Of a stretch of DNA of 64,000 nt, positions 25,583 through 55,533 are shown piece by piece. This DNA comes from Thermodesulfobacteriota bacterium. GTDB lineage: Bacteria > Desulfobacterota_D > UBA1144 > Nemesobacterales > UBA2774. The notes below the pieces were generated by a model that saw only the letters and a program-made list of their open reading frames with translations, was not told the DNA's origin and did not search any database. The stretch's first letter is position 1. Every line of letters starts with the position of its first letter. The DNA lies in NCBI GenBank assembly GCA_965216785.1, contig OZ244197.1, positions 2,080,001-2,144,000 of the forward strand, written 5' to 3'. The position numbers and the translations under genes were made by a program.

Positions 25583-25858
25583 TTATATCACCTGGTCGCC
25601 GCTTACGTTTATTCCGAATACCGTATAAACGTTCTCGTGCTCAGTCTCTTCAATCGTCTCTTTGGACTCTTTATTGTTGAGCTTCTGAACATTCAGAGTG
25701 TCCATAAGGCCCTGAGCAACGTAGCCGCCGCGGCTCGTATCGCTTACTTCTTTGTTCTCAAGAGGAAGACTAACGCCAAACGCGTTTACTTCCGCCTGAG
25801 AGGTGAGCGGGAAGCTGAGTCCCACTGCCAATGCACTTGCTAGAATTAACTTCTTCAT
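25583..25858 (-). CDS. Small secreted protein family X, paralog 1
   Basis: GGAGG RBS, signal peptide ending SQA, AFGV..P.E..EVS...RGGYVA....D...VQK shared with three other ORFs. Confidence 0.85.
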   Translation of the reverse strand: MKKLILASALAVGLSFPLTSQAEVNAFGVSLPLENKEVSDTSRGGYVAQGLMDTLNVQKLNNKESKETIEETEHENVYTVFGINVSGDQVI

Positions 25859-25916
25859 TTTACTGCCTCCTGTTTTAGCGGGTTTTGACCCGCCGTATTT
25901 TTTACATTCACTACAT

Positions 25917-25944
25917 TAGTTGCAACTGCAACTATAAAGGATTC
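25917..25944 (-). promoter_or_regulatory. GTTGCA-N2-TGCAAC operator with linked GAATCC element
   Basis: TAGTTGCAACTGCAACTA 25917-25934; GGATTC 25939-25944. Confidence 0.8.
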
Positions 25945-26084
25945 AAAATTATTCTTATGCTCGGTTTTACGTTTGCTGCGATAATTTATGAGTGCGCGGG
26001 GTAAGGTTAACAATCGACCGAATTAGTGTAGAATTCTCACATAAACAGCTCATATGGATAGAGCATTATTTTTACGGCGAGCGT

Positions 26085-26783
26085 ATGATAATTTCTCATA
26101 AATACAAGTTTATATTCATAAAAACCAGGAAAACCGCGGGCTCGAGCATACAGATATATCTCTCTGAGCAATGCGGCGAAGGGGATATAGTCAGCACGAT
26201 AGACCGCCCGGAGAGACCCTACAGGCCAAGGAACTACAGGGGTTTTTATAACCCCTTGCCCGAGCTTATGGAAAGGAATTCAGCCGGGGGCGTGATGAAG
26301 ACCCTTGGCAGGTTCATTGCGCTTAAGAAGTTTCAGTCTCACATAAAAGCCCGTGAGGTCAGGGAGCGCGTGCCCAAAGATATATGGGAGGGGTACTATA
26401 AATTCACGGTTGAGAGAAACCCCTGGGATAAGGTGCTCTCGCACTACCACTTCGCGCGTAAACGTTATGACAGATACGCTACAGATATCTCATTTGACGA
26501 GTACCTAAGGACCGCCGATCTGCCTTATAACTACAGGAAGTACACGGACCTAGAGGGGAATATTATGGTCGATCGGGTAGTGCACTACGAGAATTTGAAC
26601 GAGGAGCTGGGCGAGGTGTTCGGGCAGCTGGGAGTGCCGTTTGAGGGCTCGCTCGGCGCGCAGGAGAAATCGCACTACCGTAAGGACAGAAGACCGTATC
26701 AGGAAGTATATACAGAAGAGCAGAAGTCACTTGTCGCGGAGCTGTTCTCCACGGAAATAGATCTTCTGGGGTATAAGTTCTAA
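26085..26783 (+). CDS. Sulfotransferase family 2 protein
   Basis: MIISHKYKFIFIKTRKTAGSS, FTVERNPWDKVLS. Confidence 0.88.
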   Translation: MIISHKYKFIFIKTRKTAGSSIQIYLSEQCGEGDIVSTIDRPERPYRPRNYRGFYNPLPELMERNSAGGVMKTLGRFIALKKFQSHIKAREVRERVPKDIWEGYYKFTVERNPWDKVLSHYHFARKRYDRYATDISFDEYLRTADLPYNYRKYTDLEGNIMVDRVVHYENLNEELGEVFGQLGVPFEGSLGAQEKSHYRKDRRPYQEVYTEEQKSLVAELFSTEIDLLGYKF

Positions 26784-26798
26784 TCTCTTTAGACCGGT

Positions 26799-27497
26799 TT
26801 AAATTTTCTCCGCAATGTAGCCGTTTATCATCAAATTTTTCCAGAATAGCCGGATGTTTTTAAAGCCAGCTTCCTCCAGCATCGATATAGTCTGGGCTTC
26901 GGTTAGAATGGGCAGGTTCTGGCGTACCCTTTCAAGGGTTTTTTCTATTTCTTCCTCATCGTCGTCCCTGTGGGTTTTTTGAAACGCCTCCCACGCGAGC
27001 ATGAACGCAGTGAATCTTTCGTCGTCTCTACGGCCCGTGATGTCCGCTGTAAGGAGCGGCGCGCCCGGCTTTAGCCTCTTTGCTATACCGCTTAAATACG
27101 CGGGCTTGTCGTCATAGGGTATAAAGTGCTTAACAAGGATGGAAGTCGCGGCGTCAAATGATTCAGAAGGCGCGTCATCTATAGTGCCGTGAATGATCCG
27201 GACCCTTTCCCGCAGCCCCACGTAGGCGATCTTTGCCTTCGCTACGAGGACCATCTGATCGGAAGGGTCAAAGCCTGTAATATTCCATCCGGAGTTTTCG
27301 CTTGCGTACGATATGGCTTCGGTTCCCGTACCCGAGCCGCAAACGAGAAGATCGGCGGATTCGGGAAGGGATGTGCCGAGAATATGCCCCGCGGTTGAGT
27401 GAAGGGACTCGTAGCCCGGGATTATATTCGCGACCTCTTTGTCGTAAAGCTGCGCTCTATCGTTAAACCTTCTAACCGGATCAAATGGCTCTGGCAT
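26799..27497 (-). CDS. Class I SAM-dependent methyltransferase (CmoA-like)
   Basis: IPGY, LVCGSGTG, FDAATS, LKPGA. Confidence 0.85.
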   Translation of the reverse strand: MPEPFDPVRRFNDRAQLYDKEVANIIPGYESLHSTAGHILGTSLPESADLLVCGSGTGTEAISYASENSGWNITGFDPSDQMVLVAKAKIAYVGLRERVRIIHGTIDDAPSESFDAATSILVKHFIPYDDKPAYLSGIAKRLKPGAPLLTADITGRRDDERFTAFMLAWEAFQKTHRDDDEEEIEKTLERVRQNLPILTEAQTISMLEEAGFKNIRLFWKNLMINGYIAEKI

Positions 27498-27607
27498 TTC
27501 AATATGTTACATGATGCAACAATGAGTGTAAGGGTATATATAAATTTACCGACATAGAGGAGAAATGAATATTAGTATGCTGGAAGTGCAATATGGTTAA
27601 TTAAGAT

Positions 27608-27771
27608 TTCTTCTTTTGCATGATCAAAAGAAGCAAAAATCACCGACTGGACATAAATTACGCTAAAAATGAATTCTGTAAGCTAAACCTCCACAATTCC
27701 GCCCACACCCCGTGTGAGGTTTTTAACGCTTCCATAATTCATTTTCTTCACGCTATTTATGTATGTCGGAA
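27608..27771. repeat. Dispersed structured repeat family A, copy 2
   Basis: Colinear with 929-1092. Confidence 0.9.
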
Positions 27772-27882
27772 GCTTAAAAATTAAAGTGCAAAGTATTCAC
27801 TTCGTTTGGAAGCTTTAGAATTATTTGCTGTCTTGACGGATGCGGAGCCGGGAATATCTGGTATATTAATCAATTCCAAGTT

Positions 27883-28302
27883 ATGAATAAAACGCGAAGA
27901 GATATCAGAGACAGGGAAGATTTGGACAAACTGATGGCCCGGTTCTACGAGCGAATGATGGTAGACGATGTCATTGGGTACATCTTTACCCACTACGCCA
28001 AGATAAACCTTGACGAGCACCTGCCTATCCTTTCAGATTTTTGGGAGACGATTCTTTTCGAAAGGCCCGTGTACAAGAGGGGTCCTAAGGCTATGAACGT
28101 GCACATAGACCTAGCCAAAAAAGTGCCGCTGAGAAATCAGCATTTCAACCGCTGGCTGTACCTTTTCGACACAACTGTGGACGAGCTGTTCGCGGGCGAG
28201 CTTGCCCTTAAAGCCAAGGAGCGCGCGAGCTCAATCGCAAAGACAATGCAAAAGAGAATCGGCCCGCTTCCAGACTGCGGACTAGACGTTGTAGCCGTTT
28301 AG
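27883..28302 (+). CDS. Group III truncated hemoglobin
   Basis: FYERM..DD.IG.IF, EHLP..DFW, HFNRWL.LF..TVDE.F. Confidence 0.92.
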   Translation: MNKTRRDIRDREDLDKLMARFYERMMVDDVIGYIFTHYAKINLDEHLPILSDFWETILFERPVYKRGPKAMNVHIDLAKKVPLRNQHFNRWLYLFDTTVDELFAGELALKAKERASSIAKTMQKRIGPLPDCGLDVVAV

Positions 28303-28946
28303 CTTGTAAGCCCTTTTACCTTCGTATATATATACGCCCCGGCGGCAGAGCCGGCGAATCCGTCCAGAAAGCCCCAGAGAGTCCAGTAAAAAACTTCTGA
28401 ATAGGTTTTGGGAAATAAAAGGTACGACTGCCTCGCCTTATACAAAAACTCGTTTCTGAAAAACTCCTCAAGCTGTGTAAACAAAAGAAAAAGGGGTCTT
28501 ATGCTGAAGTCGAACATCCTGAGATTGAGCGCGTACTCTACGCTTATAACAGCCAGAACGCCCGTGCAGAGGCCGAAAACTATGCCGAAAGAGAGCGCAA
28601 AGCTGAGCACTGAAAATCCGGGAGCGGCTTGTTTGCTTTGAAAAAGTTTATATATGAGGGCGATGAGAGCCCCGCTTACAAATCCGTCCGCAAAGCCAAG
28701 GAGCGTTGATAGGATGATGTTAACAGGTGTGAGGGGCATGCCGTTTTCGGCATAGGAGATAATTCCCTCGAAATGAGAGCCTAGCCCAAGAGCATCAGCG
28801 GCTATGAGCGCCGATCCTGTGAGGGGCCTGAAATCCAGCTCGACCCATGAAAAAGCCTCTCCGTTGGCAATGGAGATGATTACCAGCAGGAGCGCGGCGC
28901 ATGCCCACACTATCCCTGAATATATTGCAAAGCGTATCGGCCTCAT
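28299..28946 (-). CDS. Hypothetical membrane protein with internal duplication
   Basis: Two halves each with DF/DFS.RPL and GF.DGF..G. Confidence 0.65.
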   Translation of the reverse strand: MRPIRFAIYSGIVWACAALLLVIISIANGEAFSWVELDFRPLTGSALIAADALGLGSHFEGIISYAENGMPLTPVNIILSTLLGFADGFVSGALIALIYKLFQSKQAAPGFSVLSFALSFGIVFGLCTGVLAVISVEYALNLRMFDFSIRPLFLLFTQLEEFFRNEFLYKARQSYLLFPKTYSEVFYWTLWGFLDGFAGSAAGAYIYTKVKGLTS

Positions 28947-31043: not shown

Positions 31044-31055
31044 TCTATATGTCTG

Positions 31056-31336: not shown

Positions 31337-32782
31337 ATGGTCTCCTACTACGAGAACTACGACACCGAGGGATTTTACGACGAGTATTTTGAGCCCGGGG
31401 GTAAGCCCCGTACTGGCGCGCACGTGCTTTTAGAAAGGCTCGAGGCCCTGCCCACTGGCGAGCTGAAAAAGAGACAGAAGGCGACTGAGGCAAGACTGTT
31501 TCAGATGGGCGTCACGTTCACTGTCTACGGTGAGGACAAGGGGACCGAGAGGATATTCCCCTTTGACATCATACCCAGGGTGATTGAGTCGCGTGAGTGG
31601 GAAAAGATCGAAAAGGGGCTGAAACAAAGGGTTTACGCCCTTAATCTTTTTATCGACGATATCTATCACGACAAAAAAATAATTAAAGACGGGATTGTTC
31701 CTAAGGAGCTTCTTAATTCAAGCATGACCTACAGGCCCGAGTGTGAGGGCTTTAACCCGCAGCGGGGCATTTGGTGCCACATTTCAGGCACGGACCTAGT
31801 GCGGGACAGCGACGGAGAGTTCTATGTGCTCGAGGACAACCTTAGATGCCCCTCCGGGGTCTCATATGTTCTCGAGAACCGTCAGGTGCTGAAACGTACG
31901 TTCCCGAGGATATTTGAAAAATCCTACATTCGTCCCGTGGACGACTACCCAAACCGGCTAAAGGAAATGCTTCAGTACTTAGCTCCCGAGGCAGAGTTAA
32001 GCCCTACGGTAGTGCTGCTTACTCCCGGGTATTACAACTCGGCGTATTTCGAGCACTCTTTTCTGGCGCAGCAGATGGGTATTGAGCTTGTGGAGGGCAA
32101 TGATCTCGTGGTCTCGGACGGCTATGTGTACATGCGCACCACGAAGGGGTTTCAGAAGGTGGACGTCATCTACAGAAGGGTAGATGACGATTTTTTAGAT
32201 CCCGAGGTGTTTAGAAAGGACTCGATGCTGGGAGTGCCCGGGATTATGCAGGTTTATAAGTCGGGCAGAGTGGCTATTGTAAACGCAATCGGCACAGGGG
32301 TGGCGGACGATAAGATCATTTACGCATACGTGCCTGAGATTATTAAATATTACACGGGGGAAGACGCGGTGCTTCCGAACGTGCCCACTTACGTATGTTG
32401 GGACGAGAAACAGAGAGCGCACGTGCTCGAGAACCTTAAAGACCTGGTGGTAAAGCCCGCGAACGAGTCCGGGGGGTATGGGATAATGATCGGGCCCAAG
32501 GCGAGCCGGAGGGAAATAGAGAGCTTCCGTAAGAAGATCGAGGCTGACCCCAGGAACTATATCGCCCAGCCCACAGTGTCTCTTTCAAGGGTACCGGTGC
32601 TCGCGGGAGGGCGGTTCGAAGGAAGGCACGTGGACCTGCGTCCATACACGCTGTACGGTGAAGACATATACGTGATGCCGGGGGGGCTTACCAGGGTAGC
32701 TCTCAGGAAGGGGTCGCTGATAGTAAACTCCTCAAGGGGTGGAGGCTCTAAAGACACATGGGTTCTGGGGGATGAGCCCTAG
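31337..32782 (+). CDS. Circularly permuted type 2 ATP-grasp protein
   Basis: [57 protein letters not shown]. Confidence 0.95.
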
Positions 32783-32835
32783 GCGTTAAAATTTCGGTAA
32801 AATAAAACAAATCTAGCAATAATCAGAGTGAAAAA

Positions 32836-33816
32836 ATGCTGAGCAGAGTAGCAAATTCGATATACTGGATGAGCCGCTATATAGAGCGCGCGGAGAACGT
32901 GGCCAGGTTTATACGAGTAAACCTGAACCTGATGCTCGAGATGCCCATGGGCGAGTGGGAGCAGTGGGAGCCGCTCGTAATAACCTCAGGGGACCATGAT
33001 GATTTTAAGGAGCGCTACGGAGAGCCGACTAAGGAAAACGTGCTCCGCTTCCTGACCTTCGACATTGAGAACCCGAACTCCATACTCTCGACCCTGAACA
33101 AAGTAAGGGAGAACGCAAGATCTATCAGGGAAGTGATTACCTCTGAAATGTGGGAGCAGATAAATCATTTTTATCTGATGGTGCAGGACGCCTCTGTAAA
33201 CGGGGGAGCTACGGAGATGCCCGAGGACTTTTACTCACGCGTGATACAAGAGAGCCACCTGTTCGCGGGTATTTCGGACGCTACGATGAATAGGGGAGAG
33301 GACTGGCACTTCGCCCGCATGGGCAGACTCATAGAAAGGGCGGATAAAACTTCGAGGATAATAGATGTGAAATACTACATACTGCTTCCGGGGCCTGAGT
33401 ATGTGGGGACGCCGATAGACAACATAGAGTGGGCCGCGCTGCTTAAGTCCGCGAGCGCGCTCGATATGTACAGGAAAAAATTTCACCGCATATCGCCGGA
33501 GAACGTGACCTCGTTCCTTATTCTGGACAGGGACTTCCCACGCTCGATTCTATACTGTATTATTCGCTCCGAGCTATCGCTCCACGCAATAACGGGCTCG
33601 CCCATAGGCACGTTTCAGAACGAGGCCGAGAGGATGCTCGGCAGACTGCACGCGGAGCTCAACTACACAGTGATAGATGAGATAATATTGGACGGACTTC
33701 ACGAGTACCTGGACAATTTTCAAACCGAGCTGAACCTGGTCGGGGACTCGATTAGAGAAACGTTCTTTTCCATGCGCCCTATAGCACAGGCGCAGCAACG
33801 AGGAGGAAATGAATGA
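32836..33816 (+). CDS. Alpha-E domain protein
   Basis: MLSRVA..IYWM.RYIERAE, GR.IERAD.T.R, FPRS. Confidence 0.95.
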   Translation: MLSRVANSIYWMSRYIERAENVARFIRVNLNLMLEMPMGEWEQWEPLVITSGDHDDFKERYGEPTKENVLRFLTFDIENPNSILSTLNKVRENARSIREVITSEMWEQINHFYLMVQDASVNGGATEMPEDFYSRVIQESHLFAGISDATMNRGEDWHFARMGRLIERADKTSRIIDVKYYILLPGPEYVGTPIDNIEWAALLKSASALDMYRKKFHRISPENVTSFLILDRDFPRSILYCIIRSELSLHAITGSPIGTFQNEAERMLGRLHAELNYTVIDEIILDGLHEYLDNFQTELNLVGDSIRETFFSMRPIAQAQQRGGNE

Positions 33817-34556
33817 CTTTTTGCGCGGCAATGAAAGTGAAAAGCGGACTTGTGGGTATTGCCGATACCCTGGTGACCACGGGGACGGAGGGTATAACGG
33901 CAAGGAAGGTGACCATACACCAGTACGGGGACCGCTCTTTGTTTTTAATGACTTCGGGGCTCCGCTCTGTAAGGGACAAGGCGCTTACGTACTTTGACGA
34001 GGTGCTTGAGGAAAGTGAGGGGAAATTCGATAAGCTCTATAAGGCGGTAAACGCCTTCGCGGCCCAGGTGCGCCGAGTAGCGGAGGAGGACAAGGGAGCG
34101 CTTGAGGAAGCAGGGTTTCACTTTAACCTTTACTCCATTATAGGCGGCCAGTTGGAGAACGACACGGAGCACAAGCTCTACATGCTCTACCCTCAGGCCA
34201 ACTGGGTGGAGGTGAGCCAGGGCACCCCTTATTACCTGATCGGTGAATCGAGTTACGGAAAGCCGATAATGGACCGGGCGCTCGACTATAATTTGAATAT
34301 GGAGACCGCGCTCCAGATCGGCTACCTTGCTTTTGACGCCACCAGGACAAGCGCCATAGACGTCGACTATCCGATAGACGTCGTGCTGTACAAGGCTGAT
34401 ACCTATGATATTGTCGAGCACCGTTACGACAGCGACCAGCTGAGAGGAATCTCAAAATGGTGGCAGGACACGTTGAGGGAAGCAATACGCAATCTGCCCA
34501 ACGGTTGGGAAAAGGAAGTGTTCGGCAAGTTAAACGGGCATATAAACGATAAGTGA
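33813..34556 (+). CDS. Anbu proteasome-type protease (Ntn hydrolase)
   Basis: N-terminal Thr after Met (MTFC), GLV..AD, IGESSYGKPI.DR; operon context. Confidence 0.88.
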   Translation: MTFCAAMKVKSGLVGIADTLVTTGTEGITARKVTIHQYGDRSLFLMTSGLRSVRDKALTYFDEVLEESEGKFDKLYKAVNAFAAQVRRVAEEDKGALEEAGFHFNLYSIIGGQLENDTEHKLYMLYPQANWVEVSQGTPYYLIGESSYGKPIMDRALDYNLNMETALQIGYLAFDATRTSAIDVDYPIDVVLYKADTYDIVEHRYDSDQLRGISKWWQDTLREAIRNLPNGWEKEVFGKLNGHINDK

Positions 34557-34557
34557 T

Positions 34558-35403
34558 ATGAAATTTAAAATCAGACACCTGACCACATACACCTTTAGCG
34601 ATATGGTCTTTTTAGATCCGCACACAGTAAGGCTAAGGCCCAAGAGCGACAGCACTCAGCGCGTGGAGAGCTTCGATATCACCATTGACCCCGAGCCCAT
34701 AGGCATTACAAATTCAATTGACCTATCGGGGAACGATACGCTTTCTCTGTGGTTCAGAGGCCTCCACGACCATCTGACAATAACATCCTCCTCAGAGGTA
34801 CAGACGCTTAGAACAAACCCCTATGACTTCATTATAACGGATAACAGAGTGGCAGAGGTGCCGGCCCGTTACGGTAAATCATATGTTGAAGAGCTCAGGC
34901 CGTATAAGAAAAACTATGAGGAAATTGCCGATGTGCTCAGAAATTACATCACCGAGGTGATGAACGAGTCAGGAAGCGAGACGCTTTCGTTTCTGGCGCA
35001 GTTGTGCTCGTCTATACATAGGGATTTTAAACATATGCACAGGCCGGAGGGCCTGCCCAGAGACCCCAGGGAAACTTTTTATTTAAAGGAGGGGGCGTGC
35101 AGAGACCTGGCTGCTCTGTTCATGGAAGGAGCTAAATCGCAGGGGTTGGCCTCAAGGTTTGTCAGCGGGTATAAGGAGGATGAGTTTTTAGAGGGCGCGA
35201 GTCATCTCCATGCCTGGGCCGAAGTGTATCTGCCGGGCGGAGGTTGGCGTGGGTATGACCCGACCACGGGGCTGATGGTAGCGGACTCTCACGTTGCCCT
35301 TGCCTCGGGCGTGTCCGCGGCGGATGCCGCCCCGGTTACAGGCTCTTACCGAGGGGACGGAATCAGCTCGACCCTAAATTTCGAGATCGATATCACCACT
35401 TAA
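34558..35403 (+). CDS. Transglutaminase family protein
   Basis: I.H.T.Y, GACRDLA, RFVSGY, HAWAEVYLPGGGWRGYDPT. Confidence 0.95.
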   Translation: MKFKIRHLTTYTFSDMVFLDPHTVRLRPKSDSTQRVESFDITIDPEPIGITNSIDLSGNDTLSLWFRGLHDHLTITSSSEVQTLRTNPYDFIITDNRVAEVPARYGKSYVEELRPYKKNYEEIADVLRNYITEVMNESGSETLSFLAQLCSSIHRDFKHMHRPEGLPRDPRETFYLKEGACRDLAALFMEGAKSQGLASRFVSGYKEDEFLEGASHLHAWAEVYLPGGGWRGYDPTTGLMVADSHVALASGVSAADAAPVTGSYRGDGISSTLNFEIDITT

Positions 35404-35815: not shown

Positions 35816-35822
35816 AGGTTAT

Positions 35823-35868
35823 AAAAAAGCTCAAAAGCCCGGCAGTTGTTAGCCGCAGGGCTTTTGAG
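35823..35868 (-). terminator. Intrinsic terminator of family X paralog 2
   Basis: CTCAAAAGCCC/GGGCTTTTGAG stem with T-run on the minus strand. Confidence 0.75.
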
Positions 35869-35923: not shown

Positions 35924-36199
35924 TTAAGACTGAGGAGCTGAGTTGTTAAGCTTCTGTACGACAAAAGAGTCAGCAGCGCTCGATGCAACGTGACCGCCCT
36001 TGCTGCCCTTATCAGAGCTGAGCTTCTGTACTGCGAGTGAGTCGCCAGCACCGGTGGCTACGTAGCCGCCGCGGATATTGTCGCTAACTTCGTTTGATTC
36101 TACCGGAACACTTACACCAAAAGCGTTAATCTCTGCCTGTGAAGCAACCGGAAAACTAAGACCTACTGCTAAGATTGATGCTAAAAGTAACTTTGTCAT
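35924..36199 (-). CDS. Small secreted protein family X, paralog 2
   Basis: Signal peptide, AFGVSVP, internal repeat GGYVA..D...VQKL / GGHVA..D...VQKL. Confidence 0.85.
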   Translation of the reverse strand: MTKLLLASILAVGLSFPVASQAEINAFGVSVPVESNEVSDNIRGGYVATGAGDSLAVQKLSSDKGSKGGHVASSAADSFVVQKLNNSAPQS

Positions 36200-36230
36200 T
36201 TTACTGCCTCCTTAACTGTGTTTGTCTAGT

Positions 36231-36258
36231 TAGTTGCAGTTGCAACGAGAAAGGATTC
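36231..36258 (-). promoter_or_regulatory. GTTGCA-N2-TGCAAC operator with GAATCC element
   Basis: GTTGCAGTTGCAAC 36233-36246; GGATTC 36253-36258. Confidence 0.8.
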
Positions 36259-36456
36259 AGGAAAATAGGATAAATTTTTCAGAAAAGCGCAGATGATGTT
36301 GTAAGTGTGTCTAAATATTGGGGAATTATTTTTTTTCTGGAATGAAGAAATATGGATTCCCGATTAAGACTTTCGGGAATGACCATATTATCTCCCCCAC
36401 CTCAATCCTCCCCCGTCAAGGGGGAGGAAGCTAGTGTATCACCCTTCTACGGGTTT

Positions 36457-37850: not shown

Positions 37851-38000
37851 GCGGGTGTATTTCGTACCTTGATTGTGAGTGATTGCCTAGGCTACTTTGG
37901 AGCCTCAAAATGGCAGTAGCCGCGCTTGGTTGCAAATAGCTATGGGATTTTTTATAATTCAAGGAGCGTCTATAGCACGCACACTACTTTGGAGGGTGAG

Positions 38001-38408
38001 ATGCCTAATACAAAACTGATAATAAGTCTGGTAGCCGGGGTATTTATATTTATATCACTTGCGGGATGCGGCGGCGCTAAAGCGCCTGTGGTCGAGATAG
38101 ACCGTCCTGACTACATCGGCTGCTACAGAGACAAGGGCGACGCCGGCGGCGCGTGGGGAAGAGATCTGGACAAGTATTTCTACAACAGCAACAACATGAC
38201 AATACCCCAGTGCATACAGGACTGTAAGGCGCTCGGATATAAGTACGCAGGCCTGCAGTCGCAAAACCAGTGCTTTTGCGGAGACAGTTACGGCAAGTAC
38301 GGTCTGGCGGAAGGTGAGTGCACAAAGCGGTGTATTGGGGATAAGGAAATGATCTGCGGGGGTACGTGGGCGAATAGTATCTATGAGACAGGGTTTGTGG
38401 GGGAGTAG
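38001..38408 (+). CDS. WSC-domain lipoprotein
   Basis: Lipobox LAGC; YIGCY.D, MT..QC...C...GYKYAGLQ...QCFCG, C...C.GD....CGG..ANSIY. Confidence 0.9.
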   Translation: MPNTKLIISLVAGVFIFISLAGCGGAKAPVVEIDRPDYIGCYRDKGDAGGAWGRDLDKYFYNSNNMTIPQCIQDCKALGYKYAGLQSQNQCFCGDSYGKYGLAEGECTKRCIGDKEMICGGTWANSIYETGFVGE

Positions 38409-38561
38409 CTATTTTTAGGGATTGATGTATTCATACTCCCCCTTTCGCAAAGGGGAGGAATTGTTAAGGACAGAAAATAAAAAAAGGCGCTAAGGGTATC
38501 CTCCTTTTATCTCTAAAGAAACCCCCTAACGCCTTTACAAAACTTTTTGATTATATCTGAG

Positions 38562-40598
38562 CTATCTGTTTTGTCTTGTAATTCTCCTTACCAATATAAG
38601 AGCCGGTATTAATAGATATAGCGGTATAAACCCTGCTGGGCCTGCTCCGGCGGGGGCCAGGGAGCAGTTTCCGCTGCCGCCTCCGGATACGTCTAACTGG
38701 TTAGGGACGCCGTCATTGTCCGCGTCTTTTTCCTCAAGCGGGATGCCGCCTCTATTACCATCGAATATATCCAATAGACCGTCGTTATTTTCATCCAGAG
38801 TAGCATCGGGAAGACCGTCTCCGTCAGTTTCGAATCCGCCGTTTTCCTCAAAGTCCGTCCCGCCCTCGTTGTCTGAGTCCGTATCTACGAAGTCCTGAGT
38901 GCCGTCCCCGTCCGTGTCAGGAGACCTTAATTCAAGCCCTCCCTGATCTGGGTCCACGGCGTCGGCGAGACCGTCGCCGTCAGTATCGGTAGTGTCGTCC
39001 ACACGTCCGTCTCCGTCTTGATCGAGGTCTCCCGCTCTTGCTTCCACGATATCCGTGAGACCGTCGTTATCCGAGTCAAGATCGAACATGTTCGGCACAC
39101 CGTCCATGTCCGGGTCGTTAAGCGGCCCGGTCTCTCTGGTAGATGCCGTAACGCCGGAGAGTGTCTCGTTGTCGTTTGTTATGCCGTCACCGTCAGCGTC
39201 AGCATCGCCCTGGCTCTGGACGCCGTCGCCGTCAGAATCGTCGGGGCAGAAATTGACGGTATAGTTGGTTACAGATCCGGATTTGGCCTCACACATGAAT
39301 AGCTTTATCGCGTCGTCAAACGGGAACGCATATGACGTAGGGCTCGCTGTGTTGAACGGGTCTACTGCGGGCTCGGCGTTGGTGCCCCATAGTGAGTTGT
39401 TGCCCGCTATGCAAGCGCCCATGGAGCCACCGTTCGGATAACCGGGCGCCCACGACGGGCATCCGCAGCAGTTGGGGTCCGTAACCCCCGTAGTGAAACA
39501 AGAGCCTGCGTTAACACCCGTGCATCCCCAAAGGTCGCCTTTTGTGGTAGCGCTGTCCGAGCCGCTTGCCGGGACCGCGGTGTCGCAGTCGCCGCCCAGC
39601 ACGGCGCCGCCACTGTCTTCACAAAAACCTGAGTTCCCACAGTTAAAAGTATAGGGTGGTCCGCAGTCGCCGTCAGCGCTGCATGATTTCCTGCAGAATT
39701 TCTGGGGCGCGAAGCAGCCAACGTATGTAGACCCCTGGTTCTGATCGTTAGTTGCCTGGAGCTCGGATGAACAGCTGCTCTGTGAGACTGCCAATCCGCC
39801 GCTCGCCCAGGTTGAGTTTGCGAGAACCGACTGTGTTAATCCGACCGGGGCGCATCCCCCTGTGTCGGTACACCCGGGGCTCCCGCAGAAAAACGGGTTA
39901 ACACACTTATTGAGAGTAGGATCGCATTTCCATTTGTAGCCAAAGCCGAAAAGAGGGTAGCAGTCTGTGTCCTGTGAGCATGTAGAGGTAGATTTACCCG
40001 GCAGGTTGCCTGTGAATATGCAGTTGCCGTTACCCGTGCAATCATAGGTGGAAGAGTCTGGAATAATCTCGACGGATACGTTGCCGCCGTCTACCATGCT
40101 CACGTCGTAGCTGTCCTGACCGCTGGATACGACAGTGAGCTCTGCAAGGGTTGCGGGAGGCAAGCCCGTCTGCGTGCAGTCAAGGGCGAAAACTCCGCTG
40201 CCGTTAACACAGCCGCCTGTGTCGCAGCAGTTGGCGATCATATAATCATTGCCGTTTACTTTTACTGTCTGGTCGTCGCATACGTTTTTTGCGTTAAAGC
40301 TGCATCCTGTGCGAGCCCAGAACCTGCCGCTGGTCCAATTGAGAGGCACTAGTACCGTTGCCGACTGTCCCTGGGTCATCTCCCAGCCCCCGAGGGTCGT
40401 TACCGCCTGACCGCCTATGGTTACTGATTGAACCGTGGGGTTCGCGCCTACCCAGATCGTTTCCGAGCAGTTGTTATTAATGGTGATGGTGTGTGTACTT
40501 TGGGCGTGAACCTCGGCTCCGCCGGAGAAAAGCATGAGCGCCATGAATGAAGACAGGAACAGTAGTGAGCTCAGTCTGGTGATGTTTGTAAAGGTCAT
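38562..40598 (-). CDS. Thaumatin-domain surface protein with TSP3-like Ca-binding repeats and a Cys-type C-terminal sorting signal
   Basis: INNNCSETIW, SGRFWARTGC, PPATLAE, YDVSMVDG, SYAFPFDD, YTVNFCP; DxDxDG repeats; GGGSGNCSLA, TM helix, RR. Confidence 0.88.
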   Translation of the reverse strand: MTFTNITRLSSLLFLSSFMALMLFSGGAEVHAQSTHTITINNNCSETIWVGANPTVQSVTIGGQAVTTLGGWEMTQGQSATVLVPLNWTSGRFWARTGCSFNAKNVCDDQTVKVNGNDYMIANCCDTGGCVNGSGVFALDCTQTGLPPATLAELTVVSSGQDSYDVSMVDGGNVSVEIIPDSSTYDCTGNGNCIFTGNLPGKSTSTCSQDTDCYPLFGFGYKWKCDPTLNKCVNPFFCGSPGCTDTGGCAPVGLTQSVLANSTWASGGLAVSQSSCSSELQATNDQNQGSTYVGCFAPQKFCRKSCSADGDCGPPYTFNCGNSGFCEDSGGAVLGGDCDTAVPASGSDSATTKGDLWGCTGVNAGSCFTTGVTDPNCCGCPSWAPGYPNGGSMGACIAGNNSLWGTNAEPAVDPFNTASPTSYAFPFDDAIKLFMCEAKSGSVTNYTVNFCPDDSDGDGVQSQGDADADGDGITNDNETLSGVTASTRETGPLNDPDMDGVPNMFDLDSDNDGLTDIVEARAGDLDQDGDGRVDDTTDTDGDGLADAVDPDQGGLELRSPDTDGDGTQDFVDTDSDNEGGTDFEENGGFETDGDGLPDATLDENNDGLLDIFDGNRGGIPLEEKDADNDGVPNQLDVSGGGSGNCSLAPAGAGPAGFIPLYLLIPALILVRRITRQNR

Positions 40599-40788
40599 TA
40601 ACCCCCTCCTTATATGTTGTACTAGTTCATTATATTATAACCCCATATTTATTTATAGTACGTAAGAAGAGGGGGGAGTGGATTAACGGAGATTGCTTCG
40701 CTATGCTCGCAATGACAATATAGGCAAAAAGCCCGGGGGTGGTCAGCCGCCGGGCTTTTTGGGATGGAGGATGGATATATGGCTGTAT

Positions 40789-41064
40789 TTATATTAAATC
40801 TTCAAAATCAATGGGGACGCCGAGAGCGTAAAAATAGTCGCGGTCGTCCTGTGAGCGGACCTGGTCTAAGTAGCCGGGTTTACTCGTTTTCTGAACGGTG
40901 AATGTATCCAGAAAGTCTAGAGCTACATAGCCCCCGTTAATGTCCTCGGTGACTTGTGTTTTCTCAAGAGGCATATCTACCCCGAATACGCTGTCTTCCG
41001 CGTGTGAAGTGAAGTGAAAGCTAAGTACCGCTGCCAGTGCTGCTGATATAAGTAATGTTTTCAT
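40789..41064 (-). CDS. Small secreted protein family X, paralog 3 (divergent)
   Basis: GGAGG RBS, signal, VFGVDMPLEK..V...INGGYVA...DTF.VQK. Confidence 0.82.
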   Translation of the reverse strand: MKTLLISAALAAVLSFHFTSHAEDSVFGVDMPLEKTQVTEDINGGYVALDFLDTFTVQKTSKPGYLDQVRSQDDRDYFYALGVPIDFEDLI

Positions 41065-41097
41065 AATGCTGCCTCCCGAATTTCGTTTACGTAATAT

Positions 41098-41124
41098 TAG
41101 TTGTTATTGCAACGAAAAGGATTC
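41098..41124 (-). promoter_or_regulatory. Degenerate operator GTTGTT-AT-TGCAAC with GAATCC element
   Basis: 41100-41113; GGATTC 41119-41124. Confidence 0.65.
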
Positions 41125-45097: not shown

Positions 45098-45101
45098 ATA
45101 T

Positions 45102-45163: not shown

Positions 45164-46222
45164 TTAAGCCGTTACCTTTCTTCTTCGGAGAGCTAGTAAT
45201 CCGATTATTCCCAGCACACCTGCCATGGCTATCAGTCCCCATTCCGAGAGGGTAGGTATGGGGTTAGGCTGGAGAAGCTCCAGTGCCAGTCCGTAGGGGT
45301 TGGTCAAGTTGGACAGCTCAACCCGCACATCAGAGCCGTCGAACCTGGCGCTTCGGATCTCCCCGCGCCCGTAATCGGTCCACCAGATTCGCTGACTGAT
45401 CGGGTCGATTTCGATGTCCCAGTAACCGGTGCTGGGATCGTTTATGAGCTGTGTCTCAACGTTGTTCACAATGTCATAGGAGAAGAGCGCCCCCCCTGTT
45501 CCAGGCGACCGGAAATCGTGTGAGGTTAAGAAGATTGTCTGGGTAACCGGATCGAGCGCGTAGCCCCGACCTCGCCCGTCGACGTGGGGTGTCAGCTGAG
45601 TTTGCGCCACCCCGGCGGTGGTCATCCTGTTCACTGACCCGTCCGGGGGAGTTGACATGACGCCGACGTCGCCCCAGTAGATTAAGTTATTTACTAAGTC
45701 GACTGCAATACCCGAGTAAAACCATCCCGGCCCGACGCCATTTCCTGAGAGAAAGATCGTGTAGTTACCGCCGGTATAATCCACGACGGAAACCTCGCGG
45801 CCATCGTAGCTTACCGCCCTTGTGAAGTAGATGAGTTGATTGGCCTGATCCAACGCTAGCTGGTGCACCGCGTCCCCCGTATTAAATACGGTCGCAAGAC
45901 CGGTCCCGTCACTGTTAACCTGATTTATCGAGCCACCACCCCCAACGCGAATGGGCCCCCAGTCGGCGAAATACAGAATGCCCGTGTTAGTGTCAAGATC
46001 GACGTCCTGGAGACGTGAAAAGTTTTGCGCCAGAACCTGGGTCGCACCGTTGCGCAGATTGGTTACCGAAAGCGTAGCGTTGTCCCGGTCGGTCCAGAAG
46101 ACCCTCTTTACGGCTGCCGTTGCACTCTGGGTCGCCAGCAAGGTTCCCGCAAGCACAGCGATAACAACTAGCAGTTTACAGATAACCTTATAACCAGGTA
46201 TTTTGCTCAGCTTATTTGCCAT
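45164..46222 (-). CDS. IPTL-CTERM surface protein with YWTD/LDLR-B-like beta-propeller
   Basis: FWTD, YFADW, YWGD, WWTD repeats; IPTLSEWG tail. Confidence 0.85.
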   Translation of the reverse strand: MANKLSKIPGYKVICKLLVVIAVLAGTLLATQSATAAVKRVFWTDRDNATLSVTNLRNGATQVLAQNFSRLQDVDLDTNTGILYFADWGPIRVGGGGSINQVNSDGTGLATVFNTGDAVHQLALDQANQLIYFTRAVSYDGREVSVVDYTGGNYTIFLSGNGVGPGWFYSGIAVDLVNNLIYWGDVGVMSTPPDGSVNRMTTAGVAQTQLTPHVDGRGRGYALDPVTQTIFLTSHDFRSPGTGGALFSYDIVNNVETQLINDPSTGYWDIEIDPISQRIWWTDYGRGEIRSARFDGSDVRVELSNLTNPYGLALELLQPNPIPTLSEWGLIAMAGVLGIIGLLALRRRKVTA

Positions 46223-46412
46223 CTGCTCTGTCCTCCTAAATAAGAAATTGTGGGTCTTATTATACTATAAGTAGAAAGAAACTAATAGTTGTACGCTATT
46301 GTTGTCCTGTACCCCTTTTGTCAAGCTCGGGTTAAGTTGGAGTTATTAATAGTAAATCCAAGCAAAAAAGGGAGCCGAAGCTCCCTTTTAGGTTATTTTT
46401 AATGCTTGTAAG

Positions 46413-47477
46413 CTATGCGAATATCTTTTTTCTGCGAGCCGCTAAAATACCCGCTATTCCTAAAATTCCAGCCATGGTTAAGAGCCCCCATTCTGACAGC
46501 GTTGGGATGGGGCGTGTAACTCTAACAGGTTGTAGGTCACATACGAAAAGTTCAAACTCGTTCCATTCATAAAGCAAGTTATTAATAGTGATTGAACCTT
46601 CTTCCGGATCCATGGCAAATATCTGAGAACATAGAAAGCCAGCCGCTTCCTCCGGCACGTCCATTTCGAATACCAGGGTATCATAGCCGTCCCCGCCGGA
46701 AATAATGCCCAGTATTTCAGCCCCTGTGCCAACTTTGACTGTGTCATTATCATCATGGGCATTGATAGCCTCTCTATTAGCCGCGTTTCTTCCATCAATG
46801 GTCGCATTACTTATAGATATAAGGTCATCATCTTCGTCAGTACGAATAGGCTGATCGATAGGTTCTGTTTGAGTAATTCTGCCGCCGGTTATGATTATAG
46901 TTTCATTACCTTCGTTTGTTTGAAGGCCGCCATCATCACATGTAAGCTCACCGCCGTTTATATATATCTCATCACTCCCATCCCTAGTATTTATACATTC
47001 GTCACTAGCTGTAATTATTCCATCGTCAATTGTAATCTTTGCTGCTCCCGGGTTAGAGTTTCTGACGCCGTGCTCGCACAGTAAGCTGCCTTTTACCATA
47101 TGGAACTCATCATTGCCGGACCCGAGCTCTATACAATCGGTGCCCGGATCGTTTCCGGATACAGTGCCTCCATTCATTTGAACCTTGTCGTCACCGTCGC
47201 GAGTATGTACAACTTCATCTCCTCCGGCTGAAATGTCCGAGCCGTCCTGAATAGTTACGTCATCAGCCAGGTCGGTTGTCTCAAGCCCATTGTTGTCGGT
47301 CCCGCTGCAACTCACTATCTCACCGCCAGAGGGTGTCATGCCTGTCACAACGCACTGGGCATATGCAGATTGACCGACAAGAAAAAATGATATTGAAAGA
47401 ATAATTGCTACTGCAAAAAGGTTAGATGTTTTAGGGTAAGACAATAGTACTCTAAAAAGAGTATTTATAGATTTCAT
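46413..47477 (-). CDS. IPTL-CTERM surface protein with RTX/beta-helix-like acidic repeats
   Basis: G.D.I.I.GG repeats; IPTLSEWG tail. Confidence 0.82.
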   Translation of the reverse strand: MKSINTLFRVLLSYPKTSNLFAVAIILSISFFLVGQSAYAQCVVTGMTPSGGEIVSCSGTDNNGLETTDLADDVTIQDGSDISAGGDEVVHTRDGDDKVQMNGGTVSGNDPGTDCIELGSGNDEFHMVKGSLLCEHGVRNSNPGAAKITIDDGIITASDECINTRDGSDEIYINGGELTCDDGGLQTNEGNETIIITGGRITQTEPIDQPIRTDEDDDLISISNATIDGRNAANREAINAHDDNDTVKVGTGAEILGIISGGDGYDTLVFEMDVPEEAAGFLCSQIFAMDPEEGSITINNLLYEWNEFELFVCDLQPVRVTRPIPTLSEWGLLTMAGILGIAGILAARRKKIFA

Positions 47478-47761
47478 CTGTGCTATCCTCCTTAAGGAAT
47501 GAATGCTTAACAAAATCTTACTATACATTAATCATTATTAATAGGGATTAGAGGAATTTCAAGTATATATAGTTCACCCTTATGACAGGCTCAGGGTGAG
47601 CGGGTTAAAATAACGCAAAGATTGTTTGAGGTTGCTTCGCTTTGCTCGCAATGACGGTAATAAAAAGCTCAAAAGCCGGGCAGGTGTTAACCGCTCGGCT
47701 TTTGAGTTAGAGGAGGATGGATGATTGGCGTATTTATTTACTTTCAACGCGCTCTCACTCA

Positions 47762-48037
47762 TTAAGACTGAGGAGCCGAGTTGTTAAGCTTCTGCACGAC
47801 AAAAGAGTCAGCAGCGCTTGATGCCACGTGTCCGCCCTTACTGTCTTTATCTGAGCTAAGGGTCTGGATTACAAGCGTGTCGCTTGCTCCGGTGGCTACG
47901 TAGCCGCCTCTGATATTGTCGCTAACTTCGTTTGATTCTACCGGAACACTTACACCAAAAGCGTTAATCTCTGCCTGTGAAGCAACCGGAAAACTAAGAC
48001 CTACTGCTAAGATTGATGCTAAAAGTAACTTTGTCAT
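47762..48037 (-). CDS. Small secreted protein family X, paralog 4
   Basis: Near-identical to 35924-36199. Confidence 0.85.
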   Translation of the reverse strand: MTKLLLASILAVGLSFPVASQAEINAFGVSVPVESNEVSDNIRGGYVATGASDTLVIQTLSSDKDSKGGHVASSAADSFVVQKLNNSAPQS

Positions 48038-48068
48038 TTTACTGCCTCCTTAACTGTGTTTGTCTAGT

Positions 48069-48096
48069 TAGTTGCAACTGCAACGAGAAAGGATTC
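48069..48096 (-). promoter_or_regulatory. GTTGCA-N2-TGCAAC operator with GAATCC element
   Basis: GTTGCAACTGCAAC 48071-48084; GGATTC 48091-48096. Confidence 0.8.
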
Positions 48097-48277
48097 AAAA
48101 ATTGTACGGGGATTTTGGAAATAATGGCTAATAATGTTGTAAGTGCCTCTAAATACAGAGGTATTATTTTTTTGGGGAAAGAAAAAAGATTTGGATTCCC
48201 GATTAAGACTTTCGGGAATGACCATATTATCTCCCCCACCTCAATCCTCCCCCGTCAAGGGGGAGGAAGCTAGTGTA

Positions 48278-51589: not shown

Positions 51590-51618
51590 GCGTCTTCTGA
51601 GGTTGTAGCTTTATTCAT

Positions 51619-53127: not shown

Positions 53128-53216
53128 ACTAAGAGACTTTCAAGATTCTATAAAAGCATTGGCACCTGGCTCCTTTCTATAGTACTATGGGAAGTACTAC
53201 TCAGGAGGTGCATGAT

Positions 53217-53546
53217 ATGAGGTCTCTAATGTTCTCTGTAATTTTATTACTCGTCGTGGCCGGTTTTCTGGGTTCTGCGTGCGGTAAAGACGAGCCTGAA
53301 ACTCTGAAGCCGGGAATTTGCGGCACGATTGCGGAAATCACATGTCCTGAGGGGCAGTTCTGTGAATTCGAGCAAGGTAATTGCGGCGTAGCCGACCTTG
53401 AGGGCTTTTGTTTAGAGAAGCCAGGGAATTGCACCCAGGATTACGTACCTGTTTGCGGCTGTGACGGTAAGACGTACGGGAACGACTGCAATAGGCAGAT
53501 TGCAGGTGTGCAGAAAGACCACGACGGTGAGTGCGCGAAGAAGTAG
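53217..53546 (+). CDS. Kazal-type serine protease inhibitor lipoprotein
   Basis: Lipobox GSAC; CTQDYVPVCGCDGKTYGNDC. Confidence 0.88.
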   Translation: MRSLMFSVILLLVVAGFLGSACGKDEPETLKPGICGTIAEITCPEGQFCEFEQGNCGVADLEGFCLEKPGNCTQDYVPVCGCDGKTYGNDCNRQIAGVQKDHDGECAKK

Positions 53547-53731
53547 GATAAAATTGTGCTGGGTTATTGGGGATTGCCGCAGTCGCTGTGCTCCTTCGCA
53601 ATGACAGCTTTTGACTAATTTCTCTCAATCTCCCTTTGCAAAAGGGAGAAGTCCGGTGTTTGACGCTTCGTTTTACCCGGGGTGTTTTGATTAAATAGTG
53701 CCTGGATTGCCGGAAATTATATTTCCATCAA

Positions 53732-54022
53732 TTACTGATATTCCGGCGGTAGCTGCTCATTCGCGAGGCATTCCACCGGGCATTTCGATAGTGAAAGCAG
53801 ATCCACGATCTCGGTTTCCTGGCAGGTGATGGGGTCGCTTGTGAACGTTACCTTGTCGGCAACCTGTATGTCGGCGCAATCGGCGAGCTTCTTATAGGGT
53901 TTTTGGCCTATGAGAATGTAGGGGCCTTTAATAGCTGTAACTGTATATTCTGACTGGTCTTGGGCAAAGGAGCTTACGGATAGGGCTGAAATCAGAAAAA
54001 GCGCTGCTAGTAATGTTTTCAC
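53732..54022 (-). CDS. Small secreted hypothetical protein
   Basis: GGAGG RBS, signal peptide, four Cys. Confidence 0.7.
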   Translation of the reverse strand: MKTLLAALFLISALSVSSFAQDQSEYTVTAIKGPYILIGQKPYKKLADCADIQVADKVTFTSDPITCQETEIVDLLSLSKCPVECLANEQLPPEYQ

Positions 54023-54144
54023 GTGCGTATCCTCCGGTTACTGAGCTTTTAGGGATTATACTCAAATCTCCGTACAAGCTCAATCTAATATTACCAAGCG
54101 CTATTATGTGGTACTAATGATATTGAGCCTATGGAAGCGCAGTG

Positions 54145-54618
54145 CTAAGCCGAGTCTCTAAGCCCGCTTGCCTGTATGCGCTCTATAAAATTCCTGAACT
54201 CGTTCAGCTCTTTTTTGTTGTACTTGCAGAGAAAATTCTCTCTTACCACTTTTTCATAGACCTGCCACATCTGCCGGCGGAGCTTTTTGCCCTTCTCCGT
54301 AATGCAGGCGAACACTCCCCTGCCGTCCATGGGGCATTGCGAGCGGCTTACCAGGCCTTCCTTCTCCAGTCTCTGGACCAGTCTGGTTACGTTGTGTTTG
54401 TCGAGAATAACTTTCTTGCCGATATCGTTCAGTCTCAGGCTCCCGTCCTCCGCGCTTTCGAGCTCCCAGAGTATGTCGTACCAGCTAAGCTGGGGGAATC
54501 CGGCTTTCTTTAGCTCTTCTTCCACTCTATCCAGTAAGTGCTGCTGGGCTTTTACGAGCCCAATCCACGCCTGTGTCTCAGTCTCCGTCCATTTTGCCGT
54601 GCTGCTTTTCTTCTTCAT
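54145..54618 (-). CDS. MarR family transcriptional regulator
   Basis: LSWYDILWEL, LRLNDIG..V.L.K.NVTRLV.RLEKEGLV.R..CP.DGRG...ITEKG; start moved to the ATG after AGGAGG. Confidence 0.93.
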   Translation of the reverse strand: MKKKSSTAKWTETETQAWIGLVKAQQHLLDRVEEELKKAGFPQLSWYDILWELESAEDGSLRLNDIGKKVILDKHNVTRLVQRLEKEGLVSRSQCPMDGRGVFACITEKGKKLRRQMWQVYEKVVRENFLCKYNKKELNEFRNFIERIQASGLRDSA

Positions 54619-54653
54619 GTACGCCCTCCTTACCGCTAATATAATACATCTAG

Positions 54654-54717
54654 GTTGCAATTGCAACTAGTTTGTGCTATTCTCCTATATAGTTGCACTT
54701 GCAACTAGTATGGATTC
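54654..54717. promoter_or_regulatory. Tandem palindromic operators in the marR / rhodanese divergent region
   Basis: GTTGCAATTGCAAC 54654-54667; GTTGCACTTGCAAC 54692-54705; GGATTC 54712-54717. Confidence 0.85.
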
Positions 54718-54744
54718 AAAAATATTCTAAGGAGGTTTTCTCAC

Positions 54745-55077
54745 ATGAGAAGAATTACAAGAGACGAGCTGAGGGACAAGCTTGAGAGCGGGCACGCGTT
54801 TACATTGGTAGAGGCGCTGCCCGAGAAATACTGGCAGAGCACTCACCTGCCGGGCGCGCTGCAGATGGACTATACGGAGGTAAGGGAGAGGGCGCAAAGC
54901 GTGCTGCCGGACAAAAACGCTCCGGTTGTTGTGTACTGCGCGAGCAGGGAGTGCAAAAACTCATCCAAGGCCGCACGCGCGCTAGAGTCGCTCGGGTACA
55001 GCGATGTTTATGAGTATGAAGAAGGTAAAGAGCACTGGATGCAGGCTGGATTGCCGGTAGAGTCGGAGGAGGGATAA
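54745..55077 (+). CDS. Single-domain rhodanese protein
   Basis: HLPGA, VVVYCAS.EC.NS..AA..L..LGY..V..YEEG. Confidence 0.9.
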   Translation: MRRITRDELRDKLESGHAFTLVEALPEKYWQSTHLPGALQMDYTEVRERAQSVLPDKNAPVVVYCASRECKNSSKAARALESLGYSDVYEYEEGKEHWMQAGLPVESEEG

Positions 55078-55533
55078 ATGTTAGAGAAACTTTTAAGTAC
55101 TAATCCAAGTAATACGGCCGCGCTCGCGGCCCGGGTGTTCCTCGGGGTTGTGATACTGCCGCACGGGCTTCAGAAGCTCCTCGGCATGTTCGGAGGGTAC
55201 GGGTTTTCGGCTACGGTGGAATATTTTTCGGGCATGGGTATCCCTAGTCTGATAGGGGCGCTAATCGTGCTGGGTGAGTCGCTTGGCGCGCTCTTTTTGA
55301 TCCTTGGGTTTCTGAGCCGGCTATCGGCAGCGGGCATCGGGATAATTATGATCGGGGCTATAGTGACGGTTCACGGGCAGAACGGGTTTTTTATGAACTG
55401 GTTCGGCACTCAGGCGGGGGAGGGGTATGAGTATCACCTGCTCGCTCTCGGGCTCGCGGCCTCGCTCGTAATAAGCGGAGGAGGCAGGTTGTCCTTTGAC
55501 AATCTCATAGCTGATCGGCTTGGGAGACAGTGA
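55078..55533 (+). CDS. DoxX family membrane protein
   Basis: PHGLQKL.G.FGGYG, GFFMNW.G...GEGYEYHLL. Confidence 0.93.
   Translation: MLEKLLSTNPSNTAALAARVFLGVVILPHGLQKLLGMFGGYGFSATVEYFSGMGIPSLIGALIVLGESLGALFLILGFLSRLSAAGIGIIMIGAIVTVHGQNGFFMNWFGTQAGEGYEYHLLALGLAASLVISGGGRLSFDNLIADRLGRQ

Follow-up and report, generated by a model that had tools for sequence, protein, structure and literature searches.

Regulators of the MarR family are, for the most part, released from DNA by a ligand or by reactive oxygen species (ROS), according to the accessible part of a report on SCO3205 of Streptomyces coelicolor, a member whose operators comprise a pair in a divergent intergenic region and a small number at scattered positions (PMC3737563). 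In Corynebacterium glutamicum, RosR is described, in the portion of the source available, as a MarR-type, peroxide-sensitive regulator of oxidative-stress genes (PMC6536590). Among sigma factors, the RpoH paralogs of Rhodobacter (RpoHI and RpoHII), which have TTG in the -35 element, control the thioredoxin and glutathione systems (PMC3441632, accessible part), TGATCC-N16-CGTA is given as the RpoE-ChrR oxidative-stress consensus of Pseudomonas (PMC5507510, accessible part), and fasciclin is counted among singlet-oxygen-responsive genes (PMC7074977). Here, we analyse a MarR-family gene, the palindrome GTTGCA-N2-TGCAAC and four genes for small exported proteins (miniproteins) in a window of 64,000 nucleotides, that is, the whole stretch of DNA under study (contig OZ244197.1, positions 2,080,001 to 2,144,000; coordinates below are those of the window unless given with the prefix C1). 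Named relatives group the host genome with Candidatus Dadabacteria. A preliminary description of the window had proposed that this MarR governs a redox or electrophile stress regulon in which the miniproteins are the most amplified output.

Results

The palindrome is present in the window as five perfect copies, starting at 25919, 36233, 48071, 54654 and 54692, and as a sixth copy with two mismatches at 41100, all six at the places previously described. When up to two mismatches were allowed, seven matches were found, compared with a mean of 1.78 in shuffled sequence (none of 100 shuffles reached seven); the seventh, at 61113, falls within an open reading frame (ORF). The scan and half-site statistics define the site upstream of the first miniprotein gene (25919-25932, no strand assigned), and the scan together with a comparison of MarR loci defines operator 1 in the marR/rhodanese intergenic region (54654-54667, no strand assigned). 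The preliminary description would have been contradicted by a palindrome common throughout the genome, and the opposite was found, with six perfect sites in 3.12 Mb (one contig) against 0.03 expected from half-site counts. Five of these lie in the window and the sixth at a second marR-rhodanese locus, 5' of the rhodanese gene, while the same half-sites at all other spacings from 0 to 8 account for a single site in total.

The regulator itself (54145-54618, minus strand, 157 amino acids) was assigned by Pfam and by alignment. It matches the winged-helix domain PF01047 with 44 bits (curated cut-off 24.6), carries two palindromes in its divergent intergenic region, and has in its wing a cysteine, Cys95, that is invariant in 15 of 15 aligned MarRs. 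Orthologs were found in 29 of 61 related genomes, usually with adjoining sites and with rhodanese-doxX close by. In addition, a scan of a genome collection returned 389 MarR relatives, of which the best 80 were kept; two of these had too little upstream DNA, so that 24 Dadabacteria and 54 other loci were counted, and the seeds, taken from the helix-turn-helix region, favour relatives with like operators. Among these best 80 of 389, the palindrome with up to two mismatches lies no more than 250 bases upstream of marR at 23 of the 24 Dadabacteria loci and at 29 of the 54 others (27 at up to one mismatch), whereas shuffling predicts 0.4-0.45. An unbiased count of spaced palindromes at the 54 loci placed GTTGC-N4/TTGCA-N2 first (20 loci) and ATGCA-N2 second (15 loci), and the divergent neighbours of the subfamily's marR genes, read by eye, are mostly rhodanese, glutathione S-transferase (GST) or DoxX genes. 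Given the proportions in which the palindrome flanks the subfamily's own gene, it very likely serves as the operator for this MarR. When a matrix built solely from sites at the MarR loci of other genomes was applied to this genome, its eight best-ranked sites were those of the four small genes, the pair between marR and rhodanese, and two at the second locus, below which scores fall and most matches lie within ORFs. The earlier proposal that MarR acts through the palindrome thus gains support from comparative genomics, as a very likely operator, and the wider interpretation is supported in part.

Two other readings of the palindrome were discarded. It would be a passive by-product of gene duplication for miniprotein copies 2 and 4 only, and its central bases and flanks vary across the 26 genomes in which it persists; reading its TTGCA half as part of a sigma-54 promoter fails for the four copies of the window, which have no TGGCAC element, and holds for the sister clade described below.

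The second marR (49% identical; C1:3008468-3011023) lies on one strand with genes for a rhodanese, a metallo-beta-lactamase-fold protein and a Rieske-like protein. The locus has two operator sites, the perfect one before the rhodanese gene and one with a single mismatch for the second marR, and it may be an acquired copy, given a transposase-like ORF at a distance of about 1.5 kb. The window also holds a gene for an animal-type haem peroxidase (22188-23987), and a related peroxidase gene adjoins marR in genus g2.

A second element, TGAATC-N17-(C/T)A(A/T)CTAA, had been missed in the preliminary description; its -10 box overlaps the palindrome. At the small genes, GAATCC stands 5-6 bases before the palindrome, the end of which forms CAACTAA. 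Such promoter-like elements, all on the minus strand, precede copy 1 (TGAATCC...CAACTAA, 25916-25945, the -10 box overlapping the operator), copy 2 (36230-36259, with operator 36233-36246 inside), copy 3 (41097-41124, with the degenerate operator 41100-41113) and copy 4 (48068-48097, with operator 48071-48084 inside), and a further one, TGAATCC...CAACTAT (54689-54718, with operator 2, 54692-54705, inside), faces marR. Across the upstream windows of 2878 crudely called genes of this genome, GAATC-Nx-[TA]CTA peaks at x=18 (13 occurrences) and x=19 (17), with 1-9 at other spacers from 12 to 26. The 19 selected and annotated loci with this motif include trxA, trxB, grx, gshB, egtD, cofC, cofG, a GST-type oxidoreductase gene and a moeB/moeZ-like gene, along with the unrelated phosphoglycerate mutase, pstS and tolQ-like genes. 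Of 30 trxB loci, 25 retain the motif upstream of the gene (24 with x=19), mostly as TTGAATC and with no palindrome. A sigma-70 scan upstream of copy 1 found no promoter. In this regard, the genome has two RpoH-like sigma genes, one of which, directly upstream of dnaK (C1:2483984-2486840), is preceded by a similar motif and is possibly autoregulated. The element TGAATC-N17-(C/T)A(A/T)CTAA is probably read by a sigma factor of this RpoH type.

The four miniproteins are encoded on the minus strand by ORFs of 91 codons, each with a Sec-type signal peptide as judged by sequence and hydropathy. Copy 1 (25583-25858) has a 22-residue signal peptide and an acidic mature part of 69 residues, with dN/dS (the ratio of nonsynonymous to synonymous substitution rates) of 0.10-0.19 among genus orthologs; in copy 2 (35924-36199) the third motif is replaced by a second GGxVA...D..VQKL unit; copy 3 (40789-41064) is the most diverged; and copy 4 (47762-48037) is a recent duplicate of copy 2. 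Ungapped pairwise comparison gives 27-85 identical residues out of 91. Copies 2 and 4 are identical at 85 of 91 residues and at 77 of 100 bases upstream, so that they represent one duplicated unit including upstream DNA; the genes are real paralogs, as had been claimed, but not four independent witnesses. Values of dN/dS between 0.10 and 0.46 in eight of nine pairs, the ninth being saturated, indicate purifying selection. The mature parts in the window are acidic (pI 4.1-5.0), contain no Cys and few His or Met, and cysteine occurs in only 3 of 58 mature parts of the family as a whole, which is rich in V, S, G, E, D and N, with Pro at 3% and Trp absent. The conserved short motifs number three, FGV, GGxVA..D..VQKL (which in the sister clade reads GGxVE..F.SFY) and another FGV, with G22, G23, F59 and G60 nearly invariant. 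Paralogs swap or triple these motifs; in some, a GGYVA...VQKL unit stands three times in tandem, or an FGV unit three times.

Neither sequence profiles nor structure prediction linked the miniproteins to a known family or fold, so that the characterised domain that might have spoken against the preliminary description did not appear. Pfam gave no family for any of the four copies and NCBIfam none for the three scanned, and profiles of known small periplasmic families (DUF1471, PcoE, DUF2554, YceI) had no match among the copies scanned. A word search retrieved 68 homologs; searching 1.84 billion representatives with a profile gave 71, including two long matches (a butterfly repeat protein, cystatin-like by eye, E 7e-6, and a 1292-residue bacterial protein, E 9e-4) that were rejected as repeat-driven. 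The named true members in the 10 clusters looked up belong to Dadabacteria or to bacterium HR37 and are all called hypothetical. Of 120 genomes of the phylum, 46 contain members, a single genome having as many as nine matches, and none were found in the 6 and the 19 genomes of two families. Judged by these sequence searches, the 91-residue proteins are a Dadabacteria-restricted family. AlphaFold2 models from 39 and 135 sequences reached predicted template modelling scores (pTM) of 0.17 and 0.19, with two FG hairpins and no global fold. Foldseek returned no match in the PDB at E<=0.001, an absence that a model this weak cannot establish, and an Atlas search gave no match of at least 0.9 and no usable named match for the mature part, with weak leads to PcoE and DUF2554 at 0.78.

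The wiring of the family was read from 58 loci, of which the 56 with at least 100 upstream bases were counted for promoters and operators. The enrichment of the operator upstream of family homologs, which had been suggested as a check, is apparent, as 35 of the 56 loci carry it, all 35 with the promoter-like element, and 26 genomes have at least one operator-bearing copy. Of the loci without it, three are second genes of tandem pairs; five of the 56 have the promoter-like element only and seven have a sigma-54 promoter. A sister clade of 17 rows (support 100/99, from only 92 columns) contains no operator. Three of its members lie between genes for an extracytoplasmic function (ECF) sigma factor with a ChrR-cupin anti-sigma factor and genes for fasciclin, MsrB and DUF4331 proteins (Pfam checked for locus L232); TGATCC-N16-CGTA stands directly before two of these three cluster-borne genes and, in the third cluster, before fasciclin. 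A fifth member in this genome (C1:698091-698351) has a sigma-54 promoter and no operator; it lies 3' of a gene resembling a sigma-54 activator, the equivalent neighbour in genome G004 being a sigma-54 activator, and 5' of two methyltransferase-like genes. The secreted family is, then, a conserved target of the regulon, as first suggested, but it is not exclusive to it, given the 17-row sister clade and the fifth copy.

Several ECF sigma factors with ChrR-cupin or RskA anti-sigma factors, fasciclin, MsrB and DUF4331 were observed in the sister-clade clusters L231-L233 and L236. In genome G046, from another family, the operator also precedes a gene for a secreted YHS-domain protein (seleno-type family) accompanied by a short-chain dehydrogenase/reductase (SDR) gene, as well as a pure three-repeat miniprotein gene and a more distant small secreted gene.

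The gene divergent from marR encodes a single-domain rhodanese (54745-55077, plus strand; Pfam and sequence) with the active-site loop CASREC, the CxxxxC form of which is conserved, and it is followed by a gene for a DoxX-family membrane protein (55078-55533, plus strand; Pfam) with a weak DoxD match. Rhodanese and DoxX are the most constant palindrome targets across loci. A gene for an SCO4226-like small protein lies 3' of doxX (55724-56002) and, among marR loci, occurs there in L031 and L032 only. The identities first given to marR, rhodanese, doxX and the medium-chain dehydrogenase/reductase (MDR) gene agree with the expected Pfam families. The inclusion of the MDR gene in the regulon, on the other hand, was not supported. 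This quinone-oxidoreductase-like gene (24437-25471, minus strand; Pfam, locus comparison and hairpin) is a neighbour probably outside the copy-1 transcript and the regulon, with a terminator-like hairpin and U-tract between it and copy 1 (25517-25559, minus strand, z -5.8), and it lies 3' of a small gene only in this genome (G000) and in G002, that is, in 2 of 30 family loci. Terminator-like hairpins (z -3.0 to -6.2) follow each of the four copies, those of copies 2, 3 and 4 at 35822-35868, 40726-40761 and 47661-47706, all on the minus strand.

Elsewhere in the window, a gene resembling a bacterial WSC-domain lipoprotein stands beside one for a thaumatin-domain secreted protein (37926-40598); the latter combines acidic repeats of a Ca-binding-like kind with a C-terminal tail that contains Cys, and its gene is syntenic in L244-L246. 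Two adjoining genes encode IPTL-CTERM surface proteins (45164-47528), and a four-gene cluster (31337-35403) is, by eye, what we take to be a circularly permuted ATP-grasp / alpha-E / proteasome-like / transglutaminase system.

Discussion

Our findings lead us to favour, on balance, a model in which a MarR operator laid over a stress-sigma promoter is released by thiol or oxidative stress, which would free the expression of protective exported miniproteins. The model starts from a palindrome that is rare, promoter-positioned and conserved in the sequences. A MarR dimer would in all likelihood bind it and block the -10 box, and TGAATC-N17-(C/T)A(A/T)CTAA would quite probably be a stress-sigma promoter common to thioredoxin, glutathione and ergothioneine genes. 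Given this shared promoter, the small genes would need both sigma activation and MarR release: MarR would keep marR, rhodanese-doxX and the four single-gene miniprotein units off, and activation would come from a sigma factor, probably of the RpoH type. For the releasing signal we lean, by a little, to oxidation, persulfidation or alkylation of Cys95. The exported proteins might be, though this is tentative, largely disordered chains with two or three short hydrophobic motifs (FGV hairpins and GGxVA..D..VQKL), and it is conceivable at the same tentative level that they act in bulk and non-enzymatically, as binders or holdases guarding envelope proteins. The redox or thiol context advanced in the preliminary description is supported indirectly, in that the second promoter element is common to trx, grx, gshB and egtD and the wing cysteine is invariant.

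Several observations weigh against this model. No marR ortholog is seen in four of the 26 genomes that have an operator-bearing copy (G011, 97% complete; G025, 86%; G027, 92%; G031, 83%; all fragmented assemblies), and G036 has marR and no operator at its three examined miniprotein copies. No site with up to two mismatches was found at 25 of the 54 non-Dadabacteria marR loci, many of which have the variant ATGCA-N2-TGCAT; the second MarR paralog may share the sites; and the compared genomes are kin, so that the counts overstate independence. Regarding the promoter, both groEL genes, dnaJ and two dnaK genes have low ranks under its matrix (193-2410 of 2878), and for this reason the 'RpoH' could instead be an ECF sigma factor. 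That all 35 of the 35 operator loci have the promoter is in part a consequence of the overlap between the -10 box and the palindrome, and a looser pattern was used for the count at family loci. Seven sister-clade copies and the fifth copy have sigma-54 promoters and methyltransferase neighbours, and a link to redox is not evident there. Lastly, low pTM can reflect shallow alignments. By charge-hydropathy, copies 1 and 3 fall on the boundary and copies 2 and 4 to its ordered side; in view of this borderline result, disorder of the miniproteins is likely, and no more than likely.

Among alternative explanations, the one that survives best, although we regard it as unlikely, keeps the same wiring and has MarR released by a small ligand (aromatic, quinone or antibiotic-like) rather than by cysteine chemistry, the regulon then serving xenobiotic detoxification. 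In line with this notion, release by ligand or ROS is usual for MarRs in the accessible part of PMC3737563, GSTs recur among the neighbours across lineages, an SDR gene lies behind the YHS-domain gene at the G046 site, and the best solved relatives of the window MarR are Streptomyces MarRs, SCO3205 and an AbsC-like protein (PDB 3ZPL, 3ZMD; E about 1e-13). Against it stand the invariant Cys95, the promoter that the targets share with thiol-redox genes and the rhodanese with its conserved CxxxxC loop. Cys95 alone does not decide the matter, since an equivalent cysteine is present in the Streptomyces matches.

A reactive-sulfur regulon appears improbable. In it, rhodanese and DoxX would pass sulfane sulfur to the quinone pool, and the miniproteins would bind or coat extracytoplasmic sulfur in the manner of sulfur-globule proteins, a reading that suits both the constancy of rhodanese and DoxX (with its weak DoxD match) as targets and proteins that are secreted, nearly Cys-free and repetitive. 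Sulfur-globule proteins, however, are rich in Gly, Pro and Tyr, unlike the composition found here, and the miniproteins have no Pfam or NCBIfam match. The sister clade, moreover, is tied to RpoE-ChrR and MsrB rather than to sulfur genes, with the limit that no search was aimed at sulfur-oxidation pathways.

The odds seem a shade longer still for the miniproteins being precursors of exported peptides or self-assembling fibres, with repeated GG-led units that are excised or stacked. The tandem units of some paralogs and the nearly invariant glycine and phenylalanine positions would fit such a role, but the loci read have no conserved modifying enzyme or peptidase neighbour, one repeat variant (L062) lacks GG, and the match of DoxX to the HvfX family, of maturation proteins for ribosomally synthesised and post-translationally modified peptides (RiPPs), is far under the cut-off (46.7 against 80 bits). 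Finally, binding of the palindrome by another regulator, such as a MerR/SoxR-like activator acting on a long-spacer promoter with marR merely a target, is very improbable, for although the site lies within the spacer and -10 box of a long-spaced promoter and the four genomes named above show no marR, those are fragmented assemblies, the palindrome tracks the MarR subfamily across several phyla and at the second marR locus here, and trxB uses the same spacer without a palindrome.

Returning to the model of a MarR operator over a stress-sigma promoter, a broader and more speculative extension can be offered, namely that Dadabacteria possess modular, largely disordered exported stress proteins of their own, built from two shuffled motifs and wired to three regulators (MarR with an RpoH-type sigma factor, an RpoE-ChrR type and sigma-54), which, using neither cysteines nor metals, might guard the envelope against oxidative damage or damage by sulfur, alongside an undescribed MarR-rhodanese/DoxX/GST regulon with the operator TTGCA-N2-TGCAA in several phyla. 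The analysis provides a precise candidate operator for a MarR subfamily that reaches cultured relatives in Caulobacter, Mycoplana and Thalassomonas, for an uncultured phylum a first candidate consensus of a stress-sigma promoter together with a candidate thiol regulon, and an orphan secreted family that two separate regulatory contexts would tie to oxidative stress.

With respect to known systems, small proteins of about 90 residues that are Sec-exported, stress-controlled and often paralogous or disordered are exemplified by Asr, PcoE/SilE and DUF1471/BhsA; the miniproteins resemble them by analogy only, as they have no Pfam match, few His or Met and no Cys. Precursors of the Bufferin/Hvf type of RiPP combine a Cys-containing core with an adjacent DUF692 enzyme, and this class was rejected, as the four mature parts contain no Cys and no DUF692 enzyme was present among the 32 window proteins scanned. 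RosR, which reportedly governs a dispersed regulon with a secreted target, is likewise a MarR-type oxidative-stress regulator, here compared with a MarR bearing a conserved cysteine; the likeness is one of description, and the targets here differ, being rhodanese-DoxX and lineage-specific miniproteins. The arrangement of SCO3205, with paired operators in a divergent intergenic region and dispersed sites, recurs here as far as the accessible part of its report goes. According to the same text, its consensus is TTnAAnnnTCAA, which differs from GTTGCA-N2-TGCAAC; the consensus here is ATAGTTGCAATTGCAACTAT, so that the operator is not of the SCO3205 type, and its divergent gene is dioxygenase-like (PMC3737563), where a rhodanese gene stands in the present locus. 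To the extent that the sources on the RpoH and RpoE-ChrR regulons of Rhodobacter and Pseudomonas were accessible, their thioredoxin and glutathione genes, TGATCC-N16-CGTA and fasciclin recur around the miniprotein family. The locus departs from those regulons in the MarR operator laid over the -10 box and in the wiring of one family to three regulators. Classical chaperone genes, for their part, mostly rank low for the motif, which does precede the RpoH-like gene next to a dnaK. The open literature searched, with subscription papers and supplements outside its scope, contained no description of the operator or regulon. By analogy, the regulatory logic would be a familiar one, a peroxide-sensing MarR regulon like that of RosR overlaid on an RpoH-like thiol regulon, and what appears to be new is its operator and regulon and, above all, the undescribed lineage-specific effector family that it would control.

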